Positions 2,931 to 42,602 of a stretch of 64,000 bases of DNA are shown here, piece after piece. Each line of letters begins with the position of its first letter. The first letter of the stretch is position 1. Source of the DNA: Alistipes sp. Lineage in GTDB: Bacteria; Bacteroidota; Bacteroidia; Bacteroidales; Rikenellaceae. A program made the translations under genes and the position numbers. A model generated the notes under the pieces. The model was given only the letters and a program-made list of their open reading frames with translations, was not told the DNA's origin and did no database searches. The stretch lies in the NCBI GenBank assembly GCA_045644925.1, contig JAZRHV010000024.1:10472-74471 (forward strand), in the 5' to 3' direction.

Positions 2931-2991
2931 CTTGTTGGACGTGTGAGTTGCTTAACAAAAAAGCGACAGAATCTCTGTCGCAATCGTTTTG

Positions 2992-3064
2992 TGATCCCGC
3001 TGGGGCTCGAACCCAGGACCCCAACATTAAAAGTGTTGTGCTCTACCTGCTGAGCTACGAGATC
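2992..3064 (-). tRNA. tRNA-Lys(UUU)
   Basis: Cloverleaf GATCTCGTAGCTCAG...GGTTCGAGCCCCAGCGGGATCA, anticodon loop CTTTTAA. Terminator hairpin at 2963-2981 on the same strand. Confidence 0.95.
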
Positions 3065-3274: not shown

Positions 3275-5929
3275 ATGAAACGACTACTGCTCATATTTTC
3301 GCTTTTGACTATTGCCTTTGAGGTCGTAGCACAGAGCTCTAAAAACACCCTTGAAATCGACCCCGCGAGCTTCCGACCCGTGCAGACCGATGCGTTGTCG
3401 GGCGTGGCTATCGACCCGATAGGTCTCGACCGCTCGAAGCGTCCCTGCGCACGAGTTAAGATGCACGTAAATCGTATGACCCGCGACGAGATTGCCAATC
3501 TCGAAATTCGTCTGCCGGGAGGTAATGTCGTGCTGATGAAAAAGACGGTTGCGGTCGAAGGTAACGGCTTGATTTTCGAACTTACAGCCAAGGAGCAGAC
3601 CCGATTCTATCTCCACCACGAAAAGTATGGAGATTCGAACGAGGTGACGGTCAATCTCGAACCCAATAAAGAGTACCGCATCGAGGCGCAACTTAATCTG
3701 CTATTTTCGATTACCGTAGCATCCAATACCAATGATGCAGAGGTCTATGTTGATGATGTGTTCAAGGGTCGCACGGCTAATGGCCAGGTGCTTACAATCG
3801 AGGAGGTGCTACCCGGAGAACATACTTTGAAATTGCAGTATGGCAGCTCGGTCAAGGAACAGTGCATCAATGTCAATAGTGGTAGCATCTATTTTCGCCA
3901 AGATGTTGATGTTGCGGGTATGCAACCTCAATTTGTGATTTTTGCGGTACAGCCTGTTACGGCTGTGGTTGTGCTTGATGGCGAGATTCTGCCCCTCGAC
4001 GAGGGTGGTGCAACCTTCAAGTCGCTCAAACAGGGTACATATAACTATCGCGTGGATGCCAAGGACTACCACACCGAGAGTGGTACTATCGTTGTCGGTG
4101 GCTCGGAGGTGCGCAAAATTATCAACCTAAAACCTGCATTTGGCTATCTGCGTGTGTTGGGCGAATCTGCTGCGGGCGCATCGGTCTATGTGGATAATAA
4201 ACTTATCGGTACGGCTCCTATTCAGGATTTTCGTCTGCCGAGCGGTAATCATAATGTGCAGATTGTCAAGGCGAAGTATAAAACATATTCGGCCGAAGTG
4301 ATTATATCCGACTCTCAGACAAAGAATATTACACCCTCGCTCGAAGCCAACTTTGCGCAGGTCTCGCTTACGGTGGCTGACGGTGCCGAGATTTGGATTA
4401 ATAACAAAAATATGGGTGCCGGATCGTGGAGTGGCGAGCTTGGTCTGGGTAACTATCGCGTCGAGTGTCGTAAGGAAGGGTATAGGACCTCGGTGCAGAG
4501 TGTTGATGTGACAACCTCAGTGCCTATGATAAAGACACTGATACCGCCTACGCCTATCTACGGCAATATCTCGATTATTAGCAATCCGCTTATGGCGACT
4601 ATCAAGGTCGATGGCAAAACCGTTGGCGAGACACCCAAAAATCTCTCGAATATCCTTATTGGCAAGCATACTATCGAGATTTCGAAGAGTGGCTATGAGA
4701 GTTGGCACAAGGAGGTCTCAGTTGCCGAGGGTCAAACGGCATCGGTTTCGGCTACACTGAGCAAGGTCGCAACGGTAAATAGTGCTGTTTCGACTGCGAA
4801 AACTTACAAGGTCGGCGATTACTACAACGATGGCAAAAAAGAGGGCGTTGTTTTCTGGGTAGATGAAACAGGTCAGCACGGCAAGATTGTAAGTCTTACG
4901 GAGTCGAGTCGCTTGCCGTGGTCTTCGGATACTGCTGAACAGAAACGCTTAATAGGTGCTGATAGTAAGAGTGATGGCGCAAAGAATATGGATGTTGTTA
5001 AGCAGATTCCTGGTTGGCAATCAAAATACCCCGCCTTTAAGTGGTGCGCGGATTTAGGCGAAGGTTGGTATCTGCCGGCAATTGAGGAGCTAAAGATATT
5101 TGCACTTAATAATACGGTTCACGATGCAGTAAATCGAACTTTGGAAACCAAAGGTAAAAAATTGGCCAATAAGGGTGATTCTCGTTGGTATTGGTCTTCG
5201 ACGGAAAGCAATGATCGATATATTGGCGCGGATGAGTTTTGTGCGTGGGGTGTCGGTATGTTTGGCGGTAGCACCGGCAACTACAATAAGAGCGGCAGCG
5301 GCTATGTGCGCGCCATAGCGGCTGTTACTTTTGGTGAGAGTGAATCTAAAACGGCATCTCCGGCATCTGCAACGCCAGCAACACAAGTCGCATCCTCAAA
5401 AACCTACAAAGTCGGAGATTACTACAACGACGGCAGAAAGGTGGGTGTAGTTTTTTGGGTAGATGAATCAGGTAAGCACGGCAAGATTGTAAGTCTTTCA
5501 GAATCGTCAAACGACCTTCAGTGGTCATCAGGTACCAATGAGCAAAAACGCCTGATTGGCGCAGATGATGAGAATAACGGTGCCAATAATATGGCAAAGG
5601 TTAAGCAGATATCGGGTTGGGAAACAAAATATCCCGCCTTTAAGTGGTGTGCCGATTTAGGTGATGGCTGGTATCTGCCTGCGATTGAGGAGCTAAAGAT
5701 ATTTATACTTAATAATACGGTTCGCAATGCAGTAAATCGAACTTTGAAAACCAAAGGTAAAAAATTGGCCAATAAGGGTGATCATTGTTGGTATTGGTCT
5801 TCGACAGAGCATAACTATCAACATTCGTCAGGTGAGTTTTGCGCGTGGTATGTCGGTATGAATGTCGGAGGCACCGGCAACTACGGTAAGTGCGACTACT
5901 ACTATGTGCGCGCTGTCTCCGCTTTTTAG
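3275..5929 (+). CDS. secreted PEGA-repeat protein with two C-terminal DUF1566/Lcl-C (CLec-like) domains
   Basis: Signal peptide from ATG 3275; several PEGA-like repeats (VYVD...G.TP/API, G.H.V.I.K.GY). Two ~176-aa repeats 600 bp apart carry WYLPAIEEL, YWSSTE and YVRAV..F. TACCTTTG -7 box at 3227-3234. Confidence 0.8.
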   Translation: MKRLLLIFSLLTIAFEVVAQSSKNTLEIDPASFRPVQTDALSGVAIDPIGLDRSKRPCARVKMHVNRMTRDEIANLEIRLPGGNVVLMKKTVAVEGNGLIFELTAKEQTRFYLHHEKYGDSNEVTVNLEPNKEYRIEAQLNLLFSITVASNTNDAEVYVDDVFKGRTANGQVLTIEEVLPGEHTLKLQYGSSVKEQCINVNSGSIYFRQDVDVAGMQPQFVIFAVQPVTAVVVLDGEILPLDEGGATFKSLKQGTYNYRVDAKDYHTESGTIVVGGSEVRKIINLKPAFGYLRVLGESAAGASVYVDNKLIGTAPIQDFRLPSGNHNVQIVKAKYKTYSAEVIISDSQTKNITPSLEANFAQVSLTVADGAEIWINNKNMGAGSWSGELGLGNYRVECRKEGYRTSVQSVDVTTSVPMIKTLIPPTPIYGNISIISNPLMATIKVDGKTVGETPKNLSNILIGKHTIEISKSGYESWHKEVSVAEGQTASVSATLSKVATVNSAVSTAKTYKVGDYYNDGKKEGVVFWVDETGQHGKIVSLTESSRLPWSSDTAEQKRLIGADSKSDGAKNMDVVKQIPGWQSKYPAFKWCADLGEGWYLPAIEELKIFALNNTVHDAVNRTLETKGKKLANKGDSRWYWSSTESNDRYIGADEFCAWGVGMFGGSTGNYNKSGSGYVRAIAAVTFGESESKTASPASATPATQVASSKTYKVGDYYNDGRKVGVVFWVDESGKHGKIVSLSESSNDLQWSSGTNEQKRLIGADDENNGANNMAKVKQISGWETKYPAFKWCADLGDGWYLPAIEELKIFILNNTVRNAVNRTLKTKGKKLANKGDHCWYWSSTEHNYQHSSGEFCAWYVGMNVGGTGNYGKCDYYYVRAVSAF
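4799..5926 (+). repeat. internal tandem duplication of the DUF1566-like domain (4799-~5330 and 5399-5926)
   Basis: Both copies start KTYKVGDYYNDG and align at a 600-bp offset. Confidence 0.9.
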
Positions 5930-5973
5930 AATTTAGGCTTTTGTGCGGGCGAGGCCCGAACGCTTTGAATCTT

Positions 5974-6004
5974 TGCGACCGCCTTCGGGCGGTCGCATTT
6001 TTTT
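5974..6004 (+). terminator. intrinsic terminator
   Basis: TGCGACCGCC-TTCG-GGCGGTCGCA followed by T7. Confidence 0.85.
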
Positions 6005-6028
6005 ATCCGTTGTCCAGAGGAGAGAGTA

Positions 6029-6182
6029 TTAGGGAATTTAGGGAAATTAGGGAAATTAGGGAAATTAGAGAATTTAGGGAATTTAGGGAATTTAGCGACT
6101 GCGCTAAAAAACTAAACTCTTTAAATTCCTTAAACTCCCTAACCTCCCTAAATTTTGAATTTTGAATTTTGAATTTTGAATT
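6029..6182. repeat. palindromic 9-mer array (TTAGGGAAW x7, central hairpin, inverted copies) plus TTTTGAA x4
   Basis: Read directly: 9-mers at 6029-6091, TTAGCG-ACTG-CGCTAA centre, (A/C)(C/T)TCC(C/T)TAA-type inverted copies to ~6151, heptamers at 6153-6180. Confidence 0.9.
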
Positions 6183-7504: not shown

Positions 7505-7609
7505 TTAGGGAAATTAGAGAGATTAGAGAAATTAGAGAAATTAGAGAAATTAGAATATCCCCTTAAACTCCATAAACTCCTTAAATTCCTTAAATTCCTT
7601 AAACTCTCT
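7505..7609. repeat. palindromic 9-mer array (TTAGRGAAA x5 then inverted A(C/T)TCCTTAA-type copies)
   Basis: Same unit and left-direct/right-inverted layout as 6029-6151. Confidence 0.88.
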
Positions 7610-33138: not shown

Positions 33139-33395
33139 ATCTCTTATATTATTATAAATTAATTAGACTTTGCGTAAAGATAGTGATTATTTCGTTACAG
33201 AGATACTGCAATGTAGAAGGAGTTTTAACAAAATAAGAAATGAACCTATTGGGACAAATTGTTAAATAGGTTCAGCATAGGTTCAACAAATGTTGCGGAG
33301 AGGTTTAATTTTGCCTAATTCCGCCACGGAACACCGCCAAACCAAGCGTATTTATACGAAAAAAGGACGAAAATCGTTGTGATTTCCGTCCTTCG

Positions 33396-33468
33396 TACCC
33401 CCTCAGGGGCTCGAACCCTGGACCCCAACATTAAGAGTGTCGTGCTCTACCAACTGAGCTAAAGAGGC
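33396..33468 (-). tRNA. tRNA-Lys(CUU)
   Basis: GCCTCTTTAGCTCAGTTGGTAGAGCACGACA-CTCTTAA-TGTTG...GGTTCGAGCCCCTGAGGGGGTA. Confidence 0.95.
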
Positions 33469-34901: not shown

Positions 34902-35079
34902 CAAAGATACGAATAAGCGAGCAAGAAATATCAAGTTTGCTTGAATATTTTTTACAGCGAGCGAAAGTATTTTCGAGCGCAAGCTCAAAGATACGAATAA
35001 GCGAGCAAGAAATATCAAGTTTGCTTGAATATTTTTTACAGCGAGCGAAAGTATTTAGGAGATTTATCTCAAAGATACA
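34902..35079. repeat. 84-bp tandem repeat (2 full units plus a partial third)
   Basis: CAAAGATAC recurs at 34902, 34986 and 35070; a ~70-bp core is identical in copies 1 and 2. Confidence 0.9.
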
Positions 35080-35095
35080 AATTTTTCGTTAAACA

Positions 35096-41126: not shown

Positions 41127-42485
41127 TTGGAACAGAGAATTATAAATAATTTGCGCCCCTTGCAGGGTAATGGTCGTAAACTCTATGTCGAGACCTACGG
41201 TTGCCAGATGAATGCCGGCGATACCGAGATTGTCGTGTCGTTGATGCAGGACGATGGCTATTTCTATACCGACCGCGTCGAGGAGGCAGATATCGTGTTG
41301 GTCAATACCTGCTCGATTCGCGATAATGCCGAGCAGCGAGTATGGGGTCGTCTGAGCGAGTTGCGTCGCTACCGCAAGGCAAAACCGTCGCTTATTTTGG
41401 GCGTTATCGGATGTATGGCCGAGCGTTTGAAGGAGTCGCTTATCGAGTCGGAGTATGGTGTCGATATCGTGGCCGGCCCCGATGCCTACCGTGACCTTCC
41501 GCGTCTGGTGCGTGAGGTCGAGGCCGGTGGTAAGGGTATCAATGTCCTGCTTTCGCGCGAGGAGACCTATGCCGAGGTGGCACCTGTCCGTTTGGATAAG
41601 AATGGCGTGTCGGCATATATCTCGATTATGCGTGGTTGCAACAACTACTGCTCGTATTGCGTGGTGCCCTACACCCGCGGTATCGAGCGTAGCCGTGACC
41701 CTAAGACCATCTTGGCCGAGGCGCAGACCCTCTTCGAGAATGGCTACCGCGAGGTTACACTGCTTGGCCAGAATGTCAATTCTTACAAGTTTGACGATGT
41801 CGATTTCCCCGAATTGATGCGCAGAGTTGCCGATGTTTCGCCGTTGTTGCGTGTGCGCTTCGCAACGTCGCATCCGAAGGATATGAGCGATGCTCTGCTC
41901 GAAGTTATGGCTTCGAAACCCAATATCTGCCACTGCATTCATCTCCCCGCGCAGTCGGGATCGACCGTGATGCTCGAAAAGATGAATCGCAAATACACTC
42001 GTGAGTGGTACCTCGATCGCATAGCTGCAATTCGTCGCTATATGCCCGATTGCGCTATTACGACCGACCTTATCGCAGGATTTACCGGCGAGACCGAGGA
42101 GGATCACCAGATGACTCTCTCGTTGATGCGCGAGGTGGGCTATGAGTTTGCCTATATGTTCAAGTACTCGGAGCGTCCCGGAACATTTGCGCAGCGTCAT
42201 ATGGGCGACGATATCCCCGACGAAGTAAAGACCAAGCGTCTGTCGGAGATTATCGAGTTGCAGAACGAACTTTCGGCCGAGAGCAACCGTCGTGATGTGG
42301 GCAAGGAGTTCGAGGTGTTGGTCGAGGGCGTGTCGAAACGCAGCGACAAGCAGCTCTTTGGCCGTACGTCGCAGAATAAGGTGGTGGTCTTCGACCGTGC
42401 AGACTATAAGCCCGGTGACTACGTGAGAGTAAGGGTTACGGCAGCCTCGTCGGCAACCTTACAGGGGGAGGTGATTGGGAATTGA
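41127..42485 (+). CDS. miaB: tRNA-i6A37 methylthiotransferase
   Basis: TYGCQMN, NTCSIR, GCNNYCSYC, TRAM domain. Confidence 0.95.
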   Translation: MEQRIINNLRPLQGNGRKLYVETYGCQMNAGDTEIVVSLMQDDGYFYTDRVEEADIVLVNTCSIRDNAEQRVWGRLSELRRYRKAKPSLILGVIGCMAERLKESLIESEYGVDIVAGPDAYRDLPRLVREVEAGGKGINVLLSREETYAEVAPVRLDKNGVSAYISIMRGCNNYCSYCVVPYTRGIERSRDPKTILAEAQTLFENGYREVTLLGQNVNSYKFDDVDFPELMRRVADVSPLLRVRFATSHPKDMSDALLEVMASKPNICHCIHLPAQSGSTVMLEKMNRKYTREWYLDRIAAIRRYMPDCAITTDLIAGFTGETEEDHQMTLSLMREVGYEFAYMFKYSERPGTFAQRHMGDDIPDEVKTKRLSEIIELQNELSAESNRRDVGKEFEVLVEGVSKRSDKQLFGRTSQNKVVVFDRADYKPGDYVRVRVTAASSATLQGEVIGN

Positions 42486-42488
42486 TAA

Positions 42489-42567
42489 TTCAAAATTCAA
42501 AATTCAAAATTCAAAATTCAAAATTCAAAATTTTCTCTAAACTCCTTAAATTCCCTAAACTCACTAA
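42489..42567. repeat. TTCAAAA x6 followed by 9-mer CCTAA-type units
   Basis: Heptamers at 42489-42530 and 9-mers at 42531-42567; same two units as 6029-6182. Confidence 0.88.
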
Positions 42568-42602
42568 AAAAGAATAAAAACTTAAATAAAGAGATATAAA
42601 TA

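Follow-up and report, generated by a model that had tools for sequence, protein, structure and literature searches.

Tandem lectin-like heads of an Alistipes PEGA protein carry two probable DGR variable regions that match a template repeat found in phage tail modules

The window, i.e., the whole 64,000-nucleotide stretch of Alistipes sp. DNA that was analysed, contains a gene for a PEGA protein whose C-terminal part consists of two similar domains (Table 1). The 884-aa protein begins with an N-terminal hydrophobic, signal-like segment, MKRLLLIFSLLTIAFEVVAQ; next come a stalk of the PEGA/beta-sandwich type and, in tandem, two Lcl_C/DUF1566 heads. Pfam searches assigned four PEGA domains (E 1.2e-39) and two Lcl_C/DUF1566 domains (E 4.8e-17); the stretches in the stalk comprise amino acids 150–213 and 431–498 of an 885-aa query, plus two more PEGA matches. 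MKRLLLIFSLLTIAFEVVAQ was read by eye from the translation as a Sec-type signal peptide, suggesting that the product is a putative surface-type protein. Its homologues are PEGA proteins of Alistipes/Rikenellaceae, and the two-head layout, extended to three heads in relatives, recurs across this protein family. The gene is chromosomal, having housekeeping neighbours and being syntenic with two related loci, L004 and L005.

Table 1. Features of the PEGA-protein gene, its two heads and the adjoining 3′ flank (positions in the window)
Feature	Position	Strand	Basis or remark
Target-protein gene, 884 aa	3275..5929	+	ORF and translation
Stalk, DUF2846-like domain and PEGA repeats	3719..4765, approximate	+	Pfam stretches
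Head 1, Lcl_C/DUF1566 C-type-lectin-fold domain	4796..5332	+	Direct repeat with head 2; Pfam Lcl_C
VR1, variable region of head 1, TR-homologous core GAGTTTTGTGCGTGG...TATGTGCGCGCC	5234..5314	+	Adenine-restricted TR mismatches
Degenerate IMH-like 3′ end of VR1, ATAGCGGCTGTTACTTTT versus GTGTCCGCTTTT in other VRs	5315..5332	+	
Head 2, Lcl_C/DUF1566 C-type-lectin-fold domain	5396..5926	+	Pfam Lcl_C, best stretch aa 745–882
VR2, variable region of head 2, full 93-nt TR-homologous stretch	5834..5926	+	Adenine-restricted TR mismatches
IMH of VR2, GCGCGCTGTCTCCGCTTTT	5908..5926	+	Identical to the IMH of the L015 and L090 phage cis-VRs
Post-stop motif TTAGGCTT	5933..5940	+	Conserved 3′ flank
Two hairpins downstream of VR2	5943..5997	+	Small hairpin, 5943–5961; GC-rich 10-bp stem with TTCG loop, 5974–5997

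Searching the PDB by sequence gave no match to head 2, so a fold search was needed. The AF2 model of this head had a pLDDT of 96.4, and Foldseek returned as top match the C-terminal domain of Legionella Lcl (8q4e_A, E 7e-7), followed by snaclecs and the CRDs of C-type lectins. Pfam Lcl_C, the AF2 model and the Foldseek matches to Lcl-C and C-type lectins all agree with the CLec-like fold proposed for the heads in a reading of the sequence alone (hereafter, the sequence-only reading). As modelled, the head is a C-type-lectin-like fold, of a kind that tolerates variation, and the predicted heads may bind ligands outside the cytoplasm; a role as surface adhesin, put forward in the same reading, is a candidate function.

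The two domains align at an offset of 600 nt in a patch at their C-terminal ends, as the sequence-only reading had it, and of 603 nt mid-domain, due to a 3-nt indel. Across 22 codons of the patch (5246–5311 versus 5846–5911) they differ at 15 nt, seven at codon position 1, seven at position 2 and one at position 3 (GGT/GGA); this count, the placement of 14 differences at positions 1 and 2, and the codon pairs are exactly those that the reading had listed. Its further observation of many synonymous differences upstream was reproduced as well, since 34 of 112 codons with identical amino acid differ there in DNA. Third-position differences occur in 47 of 148 codons upstream versus 2 of 26 in 5234–5313 (Fisher p = 0.0097), and differences at positions 1 and 2 go from 46/296 upstream to 14/52 in the patch. 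Third positions are homogenised within the patch. Ordinary divergence of a tandem duplicate, with positive selection on a binding loop and no retroelement, might account for the concentration of non-synonymous changes in a region that forms a loop, and statistics taken from this gene by itself are of modest strength (p about 0.01). This explanation is contradicted, to the point of having a negligible probability, by a template found outside the window and by alleles of another strain, both described below.

In the first scan for the template repeat (TR), every variable position was set to N. This masked scan returned a TR with A at all variable positions and with 5′ and 3′ parts that were identical, unforced. 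The repeat, termed type a, reads TGG AAT GTC AAT ATG AAT GAC GGA AAC ACC AAC AAC AAC AAT AAG AAC AAC AAC AAC TAT GTG CGC GCT GTC TCC GAA TTT in the contigs L015 and L090. It is nearly identical to the remote template that had been predicted from the two heads (TGG AAT GTC ... AAC ACC AAC AAC ... AAT AAG AAC AAC AAC AAC TAT GTG CGC GCT GTC TCC GCT TTT). In both contigs it is flanked by a bAvd gene on one side and a gene for a DGR reverse transcriptase (RT) on the other; an AAC-rich copy beside RT and Avd, of the kind for which the sequence-only reading had proposed a search, thus exists in Alistipes-derived contigs of other samples.

The type-a TR was present in three independent contigs, namely L015, L090/L091 (part of an Alistipes sp. 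MAG) and L003/L013 (part of an Alistipes MAG, and also represented in IMG/VR). The cassette in L090 and L015 has the order target gene, bAvd (PF22296; PHROG 3206 ‘Avd protein of DGR’), TR, RT. Genes for tail sheath, tape measure and baseplate hub are located upstream of the cassette and form a contractile-tail phage module, and all three contigs with the type-a TR represent phage tail modules that were either binned with Alistipes or assigned to it; none of the contigs joins the phage to the chromosome of the target. Their three cis-VRs are all mutually different and mismatch the TR at adenines only. Searches with the TR-specific pattern yielded one contig among viral contigs and one in the JGI metagenome collection; a single scan of genome contigs yielded one TR and nine VRs. 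The nearest cultured relatives of the cassette RT are those of Bacteroides uniformis phages (46–49% amino acid identity); among GenBank phages, megablast with the module gave no match.

In DGR homing, template adenines are mutated, and an IMH at the 3′ end of the VR guides replacement. The restriction of VR–TR mismatches to adenines had been set as a test beforehand, and it was observed in both heads with a TR that was taken from other samples (L015, L090, L003), not from the genome of the target. VR2 mismatches the L015/L090 TR at 18 of 34 adenines and at none of 59 other bases (Fisher p = 3e-10), and the VR1 core mismatches the type-a TR at 18 of 32 adenines and one of 46 other bases (p = 3e-8), the sole exception being TGT versus TGC at 5242. 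All 15 differences between the heads in the patch fall on an adenine of this independently found TR. Among the TR types compared, only type a fits both VRs of the window; types b and c give 3–9 non-A mismatches. Sixteen TR adenines are unchanged in both VRs (among others in ATG, ACC, AAC, AAG and TAT codons), which requires selection or chance; the cis-VR of L090 shows that such sites can mutate. Positive selection in the absence of a retroelement is difficult to reconcile with a repeat beside Avd and RT that has A at every variable base and matches every non-adenine base.

Alleles of both VRs were available from a ruminant gut metagenome, X1, which holds a conspecific strain (42–58% of 31-mers shared, the best value among the runs); these runs, including X1, are all Logan contigs of ruminant gut origin, and the comparison is one between strains at contig level. 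The X1 allele of VR2 differs from that of the window at 13 sites, all of which are TR adenines, and at 0 of 59 non-A sites, and the adjoining 3′ flank (5927–6030) shows 2 differences in 104 nt. In the 30 nt of VR1 that are visible, 10 sites differ, again all TR adenines, and the segment downstream (5302–5400) has 3 differences in 99 nt. The 5′ half of the VR1 allele was set aside; gapped alignment there gave an implausible stop codon. A further X1 contig, of 172 nt, also covers VR2; its differing 3′ flank assigns it to another gene, and it was not accepted as an allele. The flanks in X1 are about 97–98% identical to the window. Since the VRs of the two strains, as far as visible, differ only at TR-adenine sites, both must have been rewritten after the strains diverged, and near-identical flanks (the linker 5302–5467, and 5927–6030) around adenine-only differences point to rewriting at the locus itself. 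This is the opposite of the synonymous-dominated divergence that would have spoken against hypermutation. The confinement of allelic differences to the same TR-adenine bases, together with the TR match, refutes ordinary positive selection without a retroelement, unless the matches are artefacts.

Six Rikenellaceae/Bacteroidales MAGs yielded eight further VRs of the same framework, and the 8-kb loci that hold these contained no RT. One of the eight VRs (L007) has no non-A mismatch to the type-a TR, and in another protein (L001) head 1 fits TR type a and head 2 type b. The closest full-length homologues (P0002 and P0003; 60–62% identity) have a different genomic context, appear paralogue-like, and were used solely for comparison of the VR framework. 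The syntenic orthologue in L004 is 86.5% identical in nucleotide sequence across the stalk, up to window position 4778; beyond this point, L004 and L005 have an FGE-sulfatase head instead, inserted between flanks that are exactly conserved at window positions 4778 and 6174. Heads thus do get swapped at this locus.

Such swapping lends some plausibility to the idea that the two-head C-terminus, or its last ~100 nt, was acquired by recombination with a paralogue or with the tail gene of a phage, in which case the adenine pattern would have been written in the donor and never here; the 3′ flank motifs, which are common to the phage targets, point in the same direction. Upstream of the VR, however, the heads share only ~34–37% protein identity with the phage targets, and similarity starts sharply at the TR boundary. 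This onset, and the X1 flanks that are near-identical while both VRs differ at adenines only, led us to reject wholesale import of the VRs from a phage gene, and import of the cassette in any of these forms appears very improbable.

The two heads differ in their homing signals. GCGCGCTGTCTCCGCTTTT is conserved as the IMH in all chromosomal VRs found, and in VR2 it deviates from the IMH* of the TR only by GCT versus GAA (5921–5923). The 3′ end of VR1 has 6–7 non-A mismatches to the TR/IMH; its GC-rich start is kept, the next 12–18 nt have diverged, and a 6-nt insertion is present. The internal VRs of relatives retain GCCGTGTCCGC. Downstream of VR2, the folded DNA reaches –22.6 kcal/mol (z = –3.43), a value that none of 200 shuffled sequences equalled, whereas the 100 nt downstream of VR1 contain no significant hairpin (z = +0.82). 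The hairpin layout of VR2 is the same in the phage cis-VRs and in other chromosomal VRs, and by analogy to the Bordetella paradigm these hairpins may have a role in homing. A T run after the hairpin at 5974–5997 is terminator-like. TTAGGCTT, invariant or nearly so across nine aligned 3′ flanks of phage and chromosomal VRs, probably has a function. The degenerate signal of VR1 suggests that the two heads may differ in competence today; VR1 is likely to be still competent, albeit this conclusion is weaker than that for VR2.

With respect to the whereabouts of the retroelement, the statement of the sequence-only reading that the window holds none was upheld by every approach. In tblastn searches of the window with full-length DGR RT and Avd, nothing scored better than E 0.66; a profile HMM built from 65 DGR RTs gave a best E of 1.5 against the six-frame translation of the 64 kb; blastn with the TR retrieved only the two VRs, and a repeat search revealed no third copy. 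Without RT, Avd and TR in the window, the gene is a remote target, presumably served in trans. Samples containing the species (X1, X5, X45, X46) showed only other TR variants instead of type a, in contigs that can show presence, not absence. X1 itself contains three related DGR cassettes, assembled at ~25x, none of them with the type-a TR. The missing repeat in the contigs of these samples is weak negative evidence. Phage contigs are often lost in MAG binning; among the GTDB representative genomes with such VRs, the TR was also present in one of seven.

These observations could also mean that the VRs are relics, written by a DGR that has since been lost from the lineage, for example with a departed phage, and now evolving in the ordinary manner. 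A window without retroelement, a conspecific in X1 that has type-a VRs and no assembled type-a TR, the lack of a TR in six of the seven VR-bearing representative genomes, and the degenerate IMH of VR1 would all fit. On the other hand, VR2 shows 0 of 59 non-A changes relative to a TR that comes from unrelated samples, compared with 9–13% of sites in the syntenic orthologue, and both VRs have adenine-site differences between strains that are ~97–98% identical. Identity at non-A sites combined with allelic adenine differences implies that, measured against the divergence of the strains, the last homing is very recent. Besides, the IMH and the flank of VR2 are intact, and a failure to find the element in contigs or MAGs is weak evidence. 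We therefore regard relic targets as unlikely, yet distinctly less so than cassette import.

Taken together, the gene is a real DGR remote target. Both patches are very probably DGR variable regions of the DUF1566/‘CLec2’ class, each located at the C-terminus of one of two tandem C-type-lectin-fold heads on a PEGA stalk, and we infer that the serving retroelement is phage-borne. An ordinary bacterial gene thus seems to be hypermutated from a distant template, possibly one carried by a phage. In the established DGR mechanism, as applied to this gene, the TR would be transcribed, and the DGR reverse transcriptase together with Avd would copy the TR RNA into cDNA, misincorporating opposite template adenines; the cDNA would then replace the VR, guided by the IMH at its 3′ end. 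Adenine-specific misincorporation would convert AAY into NNY codons and reset the non-adenine positions to the TR. The retroelement may reside on a contractile-tailed Alistipes phage or prophage, as suggested by the fact that every type-a TR copy found ends such a tail module. While resident, the phage would diversify its own tail-fibre-like protein in cis and the heads of the host in trans.

The class assignment relates the protein to LdtA, the target of the Legionella pneumophila DGR, which falls into category d (DUF1566/‘CLec2’) of Wu et al. 2018 (PMC5758913). Both have a C-terminal VR in a DUF1566/Lcl_C fold, AAY-rich TR codons and a target of the secreted or surface type. In Legionella, however, the cassette is located beside the target on a genomic island and each protein has a single VR, whereas here one ORF on a PEGA stalk carries two, no cassette is present within 64 kb, and the TR occurs in phage tail modules only. 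Chromosomal targets far from the RT, with homing in trans, are shared with the DGR of Treponema denticola, which serves TvpA and six further remote targets (PMC5758913). The Treponema system is cellular and acts on FGE-sulfatase-type heads; in the present case, every matching TR found is phage-associated.

The DGRs of Bordetella phage BPP-1 (Mtd; avd-TR-brt) and of Bacteroides uniformis phages (F1/F2/F4, PMC8143477) have the same order of target, Avd, TR and RT at the end of a tail module; the pairing of IMH with IMH* and the hairpins that follow the VR are likewise shared. They are described as diversifying the phages' own tail protein, and a host chromosomal match to a phage TR lies outside those descriptions. 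Remote targets are not expected for phage-associated DGRs according to Wu et al. (PMC5758913). Targets with multiple or internal VRs are rare: the 372 DGRs of the same authors include a single CLec1 gene with three VRs and, in the CLec2 class, a single gene whose VR is internal (Wu et al. 2018, PMC5758913), and VRs in Bacteroides were reported to be uniformly C-terminal (10.1101/2024.11.15.621889). As in those exceptional genes, more than one VR per ORF means here, in a CLec2/DUF1566-class protein, that the IMH of the internal VR must also encode protein. A metagenome survey lists PEGA among the domains that were new to predicted DGR targets (Roux et al., 10.1101/2020.04.01.020958); targets in that survey were tied to a TR on the same contig, while the gene described here has no cassette nearby.

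The locus demonstrates that raw sequence can suffice to recognise a DGR target that has no retroelement nearby, and that public data can then yield the template predicted for it. For remote targeting in Rikenellaceae it is a clean and testable example, in which a single protein presents two independently rewritten lectin heads, one of them with a non-canonical homing signal and nevertheless variable between strains. The strain-level replacement of whole heads, two DUF1566 domains versus one FGE-sulfatase domain, on a conserved stalk constitutes a second layer of variability at the locus. A phage-borne template that matches host genes exactly is a lead; the putative link between phage template and host gene is unusual. 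Our tentative suggestion, for which the odds are somewhat unfavourable, is that one Alistipes phage DGR template rewrites the phage's own tail-fibre-like head in cis and, while resident, the DUF1566 heads of host PEGA proteins in trans, leaving the host genes behind as ‘orphan’ hypervariable loci after loss of the phage. If true, this would contradict the expectation of Wu et al. 2018 that there are no remote cellular targets, and would explain why hypervariable loci in MAGs often lack any retroelement. Related ligand-binding heads of phage and host would then be hypermutated by a common system, in which each phage TR variant would have heads of its own to serve, so that two heads of a single host protein could depend on different variants (cf. 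L001), and resident phages could reshape the surface-protein repertoires of their hosts.

The target gene codes for a PEGA-stalk protein with two DUF1566 heads (Table), which form a repeat of 83-86% identity at an offset of 600/603 nt. Judged by eye, its N-terminus MKRLLLIFSLLTIAFEVVAQ is a putative Sec-type signal without a lipobox cysteine. The AlphaFold2 model of head 2 (pLDDT 96.4; 29 homologues as input) had as its top PDB fold match the C-terminal domain of Legionella Lcl (8q4e_A, E 7e-7, TM 0.70 on target), followed by C-type lectin domains of snake venom and mannose receptor, in agreement with the C-type-lectin-like fold proposed by the sequence-only reading; by sequence alone, head 2 had no match in the PDB.

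Features of the target gene and other elements of the window
Feature	Position	Strand	Remarks
Target gene ORF	3275-5929	+	884 aa
PEGA, four stretches	in 3275-5929 product	+	Pfam E 1.2e-39
DUF2846-like N-terminal domain	in 3275-5929 product	+	Pfam
Lcl_C/DUF1566, two stretches	in 3275-5929 product	+	Pfam E 4.8e-17
Head 1	4796-5332	+	direct repeat with head 2
Head 2	5396-5926	+	direct repeat with head 1
VR1 core	5234-5311	+	compared with type-a TR
VR2	5834-5926	+	compared with type-a TR
Post-stop motif TTAGGCTT	5933-5940	+	3' of VR2 stop codon
Small hairpin	5943-5961	+	downstream of VR2
GC-rich terminator-like hairpin	5974-5997	+	downstream of VR2
tRNA-Lys(ttt)	2991-3064	-	~200 nt upstream of target gene start
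tRNA-Lys(ctt)	33395-33468	-	30 kb away
Two tRNA-Pro genes	18330 and 29433
84-nt unit, 2.2 tandem copies	34902-35082		91-100% identity; intergenic-looking stretch

The patches 5246-5311 and 5846-5911 differ at 15 nt, of which seven each are at codon positions 1 and 2 and one (GGT/GGA) is at position 3, with the codon pairs exactly as listed before database searches. The synonymous differences reported upstream of the patch were likewise found, 34 of 112 codons for identical amino acids varying in their DNA. Third-position differences amount to 47/148 codons upstream vs 2/26 in 5234-5313 (p = 0.0097), and differences at positions 1 and 2 to 46/296 vs 14/52. The patch is therefore hyper-diverged at codon positions 1-2 and homogenised at the third, as should be expected for two copies rewritten from one template.

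A first scan for the template repeat (TR) in IMG/VR, with the framework of the variable regions (VRs) as query and all variable positions set to N, gave one contig with two matches. Its minus strand carries, in order, a 384-aa gene with a terminal VR, a 123-aa ORF, a non-coding copy with adenine at every N position, and the start of a reverse transcriptase (RT) gene. A second contig (L015) was found via a TR-specific pattern, and a third (L090/L091), from an Alistipes sp. MAG, by RT protein search. The type-a TR of L015 and L090, GAGTTTTGCGCGTGG AAT GTC AAT ATG AAT GAC GGA AAC ACC AAC AAC AAC AAT AAG AAC AAC AAC AAC TAT GTG CGC GCT GTC TCC GAA TTT, is nearly the same sequence as the template predicted from the two heads. 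The small ORF codes for the accessory protein bAvd (PF22296; PHROG 'Avd protein of DGR'); the non-coding AAC-rich copy adjoining a DGR RT and Avd exists, in contigs from other samples. All three contigs with type-a TR are phage tail modules, with genes for tail sheath, tape measure and baseplate hub upstream of the cassette, and the closest cultured relatives of the RT are DGR RTs of Bacteroides uniformis phages (46-49% identity). The VRs in the cassettes' own target genes (cis-VRs) are all different and each departs from its TR at adenines only, which shows the element to be active in nature.

VR2 mismatches the type-a TR at 18/34 adenines and at 0/59 other bases (Fisher p 3e-10), a fit on par with that of the cassettes' own VRs; the VR1 core does so at 18/32 adenines and 1/46 other bases (TGT vs TGC at 5242; Fisher p 3e-8), as the proposed adenine restriction predicts. 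This fit is not circular, because the scan constrained only 30 framework bases within a 53-nt stretch, leaving free both the adenines at variable positions and the identity of the 5' (GAGTTTTGCGCGTGG..GTC) and 3' (CGCTGTCTCCG..TTT) parts. Similarity of TR and VR begins abruptly at GAG (5834/5234); 5' of the VR, phage targets and window heads share just 34-37% protein identity. TR types b (ATG AAC AAT GGC; L092 and contigs from metagenomes X1, X3, X4, X5 and X45) and c (L017) fit worse, with 3-9 non-adenine mismatches.

The VR2 3' end, GCGCGCTGTCTCCGCTTTT, exactly matches the homing signal (IMH) of the cis-VRs in L015 and L090; its only difference from the TR counterpart, IMH*, is GCT vs GAA. 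The downstream fold has z = -3.43, and this 3' layout recurs in the cis-VRs of the phages and at six further chromosomal VRs. VR1 retains TATGTGCGCGCC and then continues with ATAGCGGCTGTTACTTTT; in other VRs, among them the internal VRs of L010, L012, L001 and L002, this place is taken by GTGTCCGC(T)TTT. No hairpin was found 3' of VR1 (z = +0.82).

Multi-headed proteins also occur elsewhere. L010 and L012 ('Bacteroidaceae bacterium' MAG contigs) contain ORFs with at least three DUF1566 heads, whose internal VRs have an intact IMH (GCCGTGTCCGCTTTT) reading through into the linker. P0002, a two-head, paralogue-like protein (L001 4028-6718), has a head-1 VR closer to TR type a than b (4 vs 7 non-A mismatches) and a head-2 VR closer to type b than a (1 vs 3), so this single protein may draw on two different retroelements.

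The gut metagenome X1 holds a conspecific strain (42-58% of sampled 31-mers common with the window). Its VR2 allele, on a 378-nt contig over 5790-6179, differs at 13 positions inside VR2 (5849, 5850, 5861, 5865, 5869, 5870, 5876, 5880, 5885, 5886, 5892, 5897, 5900), 13/13 being TR adenines, with 0/59 non-adenine changes (p = 4e-7); past the stop codon, 104 nt contain a single substitution and a single 1-nt deletion. The VR1 allele (374-nt contig, same linker attached) differs at 10 positions in the 30 nt visible, again all TR adenines (10/10), and over 5302-5400 shows three differences, with the same degenerate IMH. Variation in the visible VRs is thus confined to TR adenines and not synonymous-dominated, and both heads were therefore rewritten after the ~97-98%-identical strains split. 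VR1, with its unusual 3' end, appears to be a working target now or very recently.

As the sequence-only reading stated, no retroelement was found within the 64-kb window. The target gene is chromosomal, its neighbours (GT90 glycosyltransferase, saccharopine dehydrogenase, Orn/DAP decarboxylase, mannose-6-phosphate isomerase) being syntenic with the orthologue loci L004/L005 (86-91% nt identity). Seven GTDB representative genomes have VRs of this framework, one of them with the TR (1/7); no RT lies within 8 kb of any of eight chromosomal VR loci, among which L007 (428-kb contig) has 0 non-adenine mismatches to the type-a TR. In X1, a single gut sample, three or more related DGR cassettes (TR and RT start), aligned to L015 2200-2460, are assembled at ~25x; the type-a TR is in none of the three, although the conspecific VR allele is type-a-derived (NNT GAC GGN). 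This TR distribution fits a mobile phage-borne DGR unfixed in the species; it is equally compatible with incomplete assemblies. The source genome itself may have a cellular copy of the retroelement.

The 60 nt 5' of the TR (GTACTCTCATTTAGAGTTAAGAGCAAGATAATCGCAGAAG) are strongly conserved across X1 cassettes and viral loci L016-L019 and L092, and may form a structure within the TR RNA. In the type-b cassette L092 (1772-2886), gene calling splits the RT into two overlapping ORFs (182 and 200 aa), with a radical-SAM gene after them; the RT could be frameshifted or mis-assembled.

In L004 from a close relative (4126-5109; also L005), a single FGE-sulfatase head replaces both DUF1566 heads and the 3' flank (window 4779-6173) at sharp breakpoints, with stalk (86.5% identity) and downstream genes (90.7%) conserved. 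The C-terminus of this head is likewise NNY-rich (RGGSW...GFRLV type), which makes the head a probable target of a different DGR class. At 6029-6182, 7505-7606 and 42480-42568 of the window lie intergenic arrays of 9-nt repeats (TTAGGGAAT / TTAGAGAAA), followed by their inverted copies and 7-nt AATTTTG/AATTCAA runs, with like arrays at the same intergenic sites in L004. Over 6141-6182, contig depth in ruminant gut metagenomes runs into the thousands, and the repeat must therefore be very common in them.

DUF1566 heads constitute DGR target category d/CLec2, to which Legionella LdtA also belongs (PMC5758913), and Roux et al. (10.1101/2020.04.01.020958) observed PEGA domains on such targets. Remote targets are known, e.g. 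seven in Treponema; the same survey states that they are unexpected for phage-associated DGRs, and found all but one remote case to be non-phage (PMC5758913). A gene with an internal VR or with several VRs is seldom seen: of 372 DGRs, a single CLec2 gene had an internal VR and a single CLec1 gene three VRs (PMC5758913). For Bacteroides, VRs were reported to lie uniformly at the C-terminus (10.1101/2024.11.15.621889). Gut prophage DGRs can have a distal second VR, in the described cases within the prophage (PMC12629997); in the literature searched, no host chromosomal gene was found described as matching a phage TR. The TR mismatches, almost all at adenines, and the X1 alleles support the DGR interpretation, and with it the target gene as a remote target within the DUF1566 class. 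Uncommon are its two VRs in one ORF, an internal VR with a non-canonical IMH that appears to be working or recently so, and a template so far known only from phages; that a phage-borne template rewrites a host chromosomal head gene is possible, though less likely than not.
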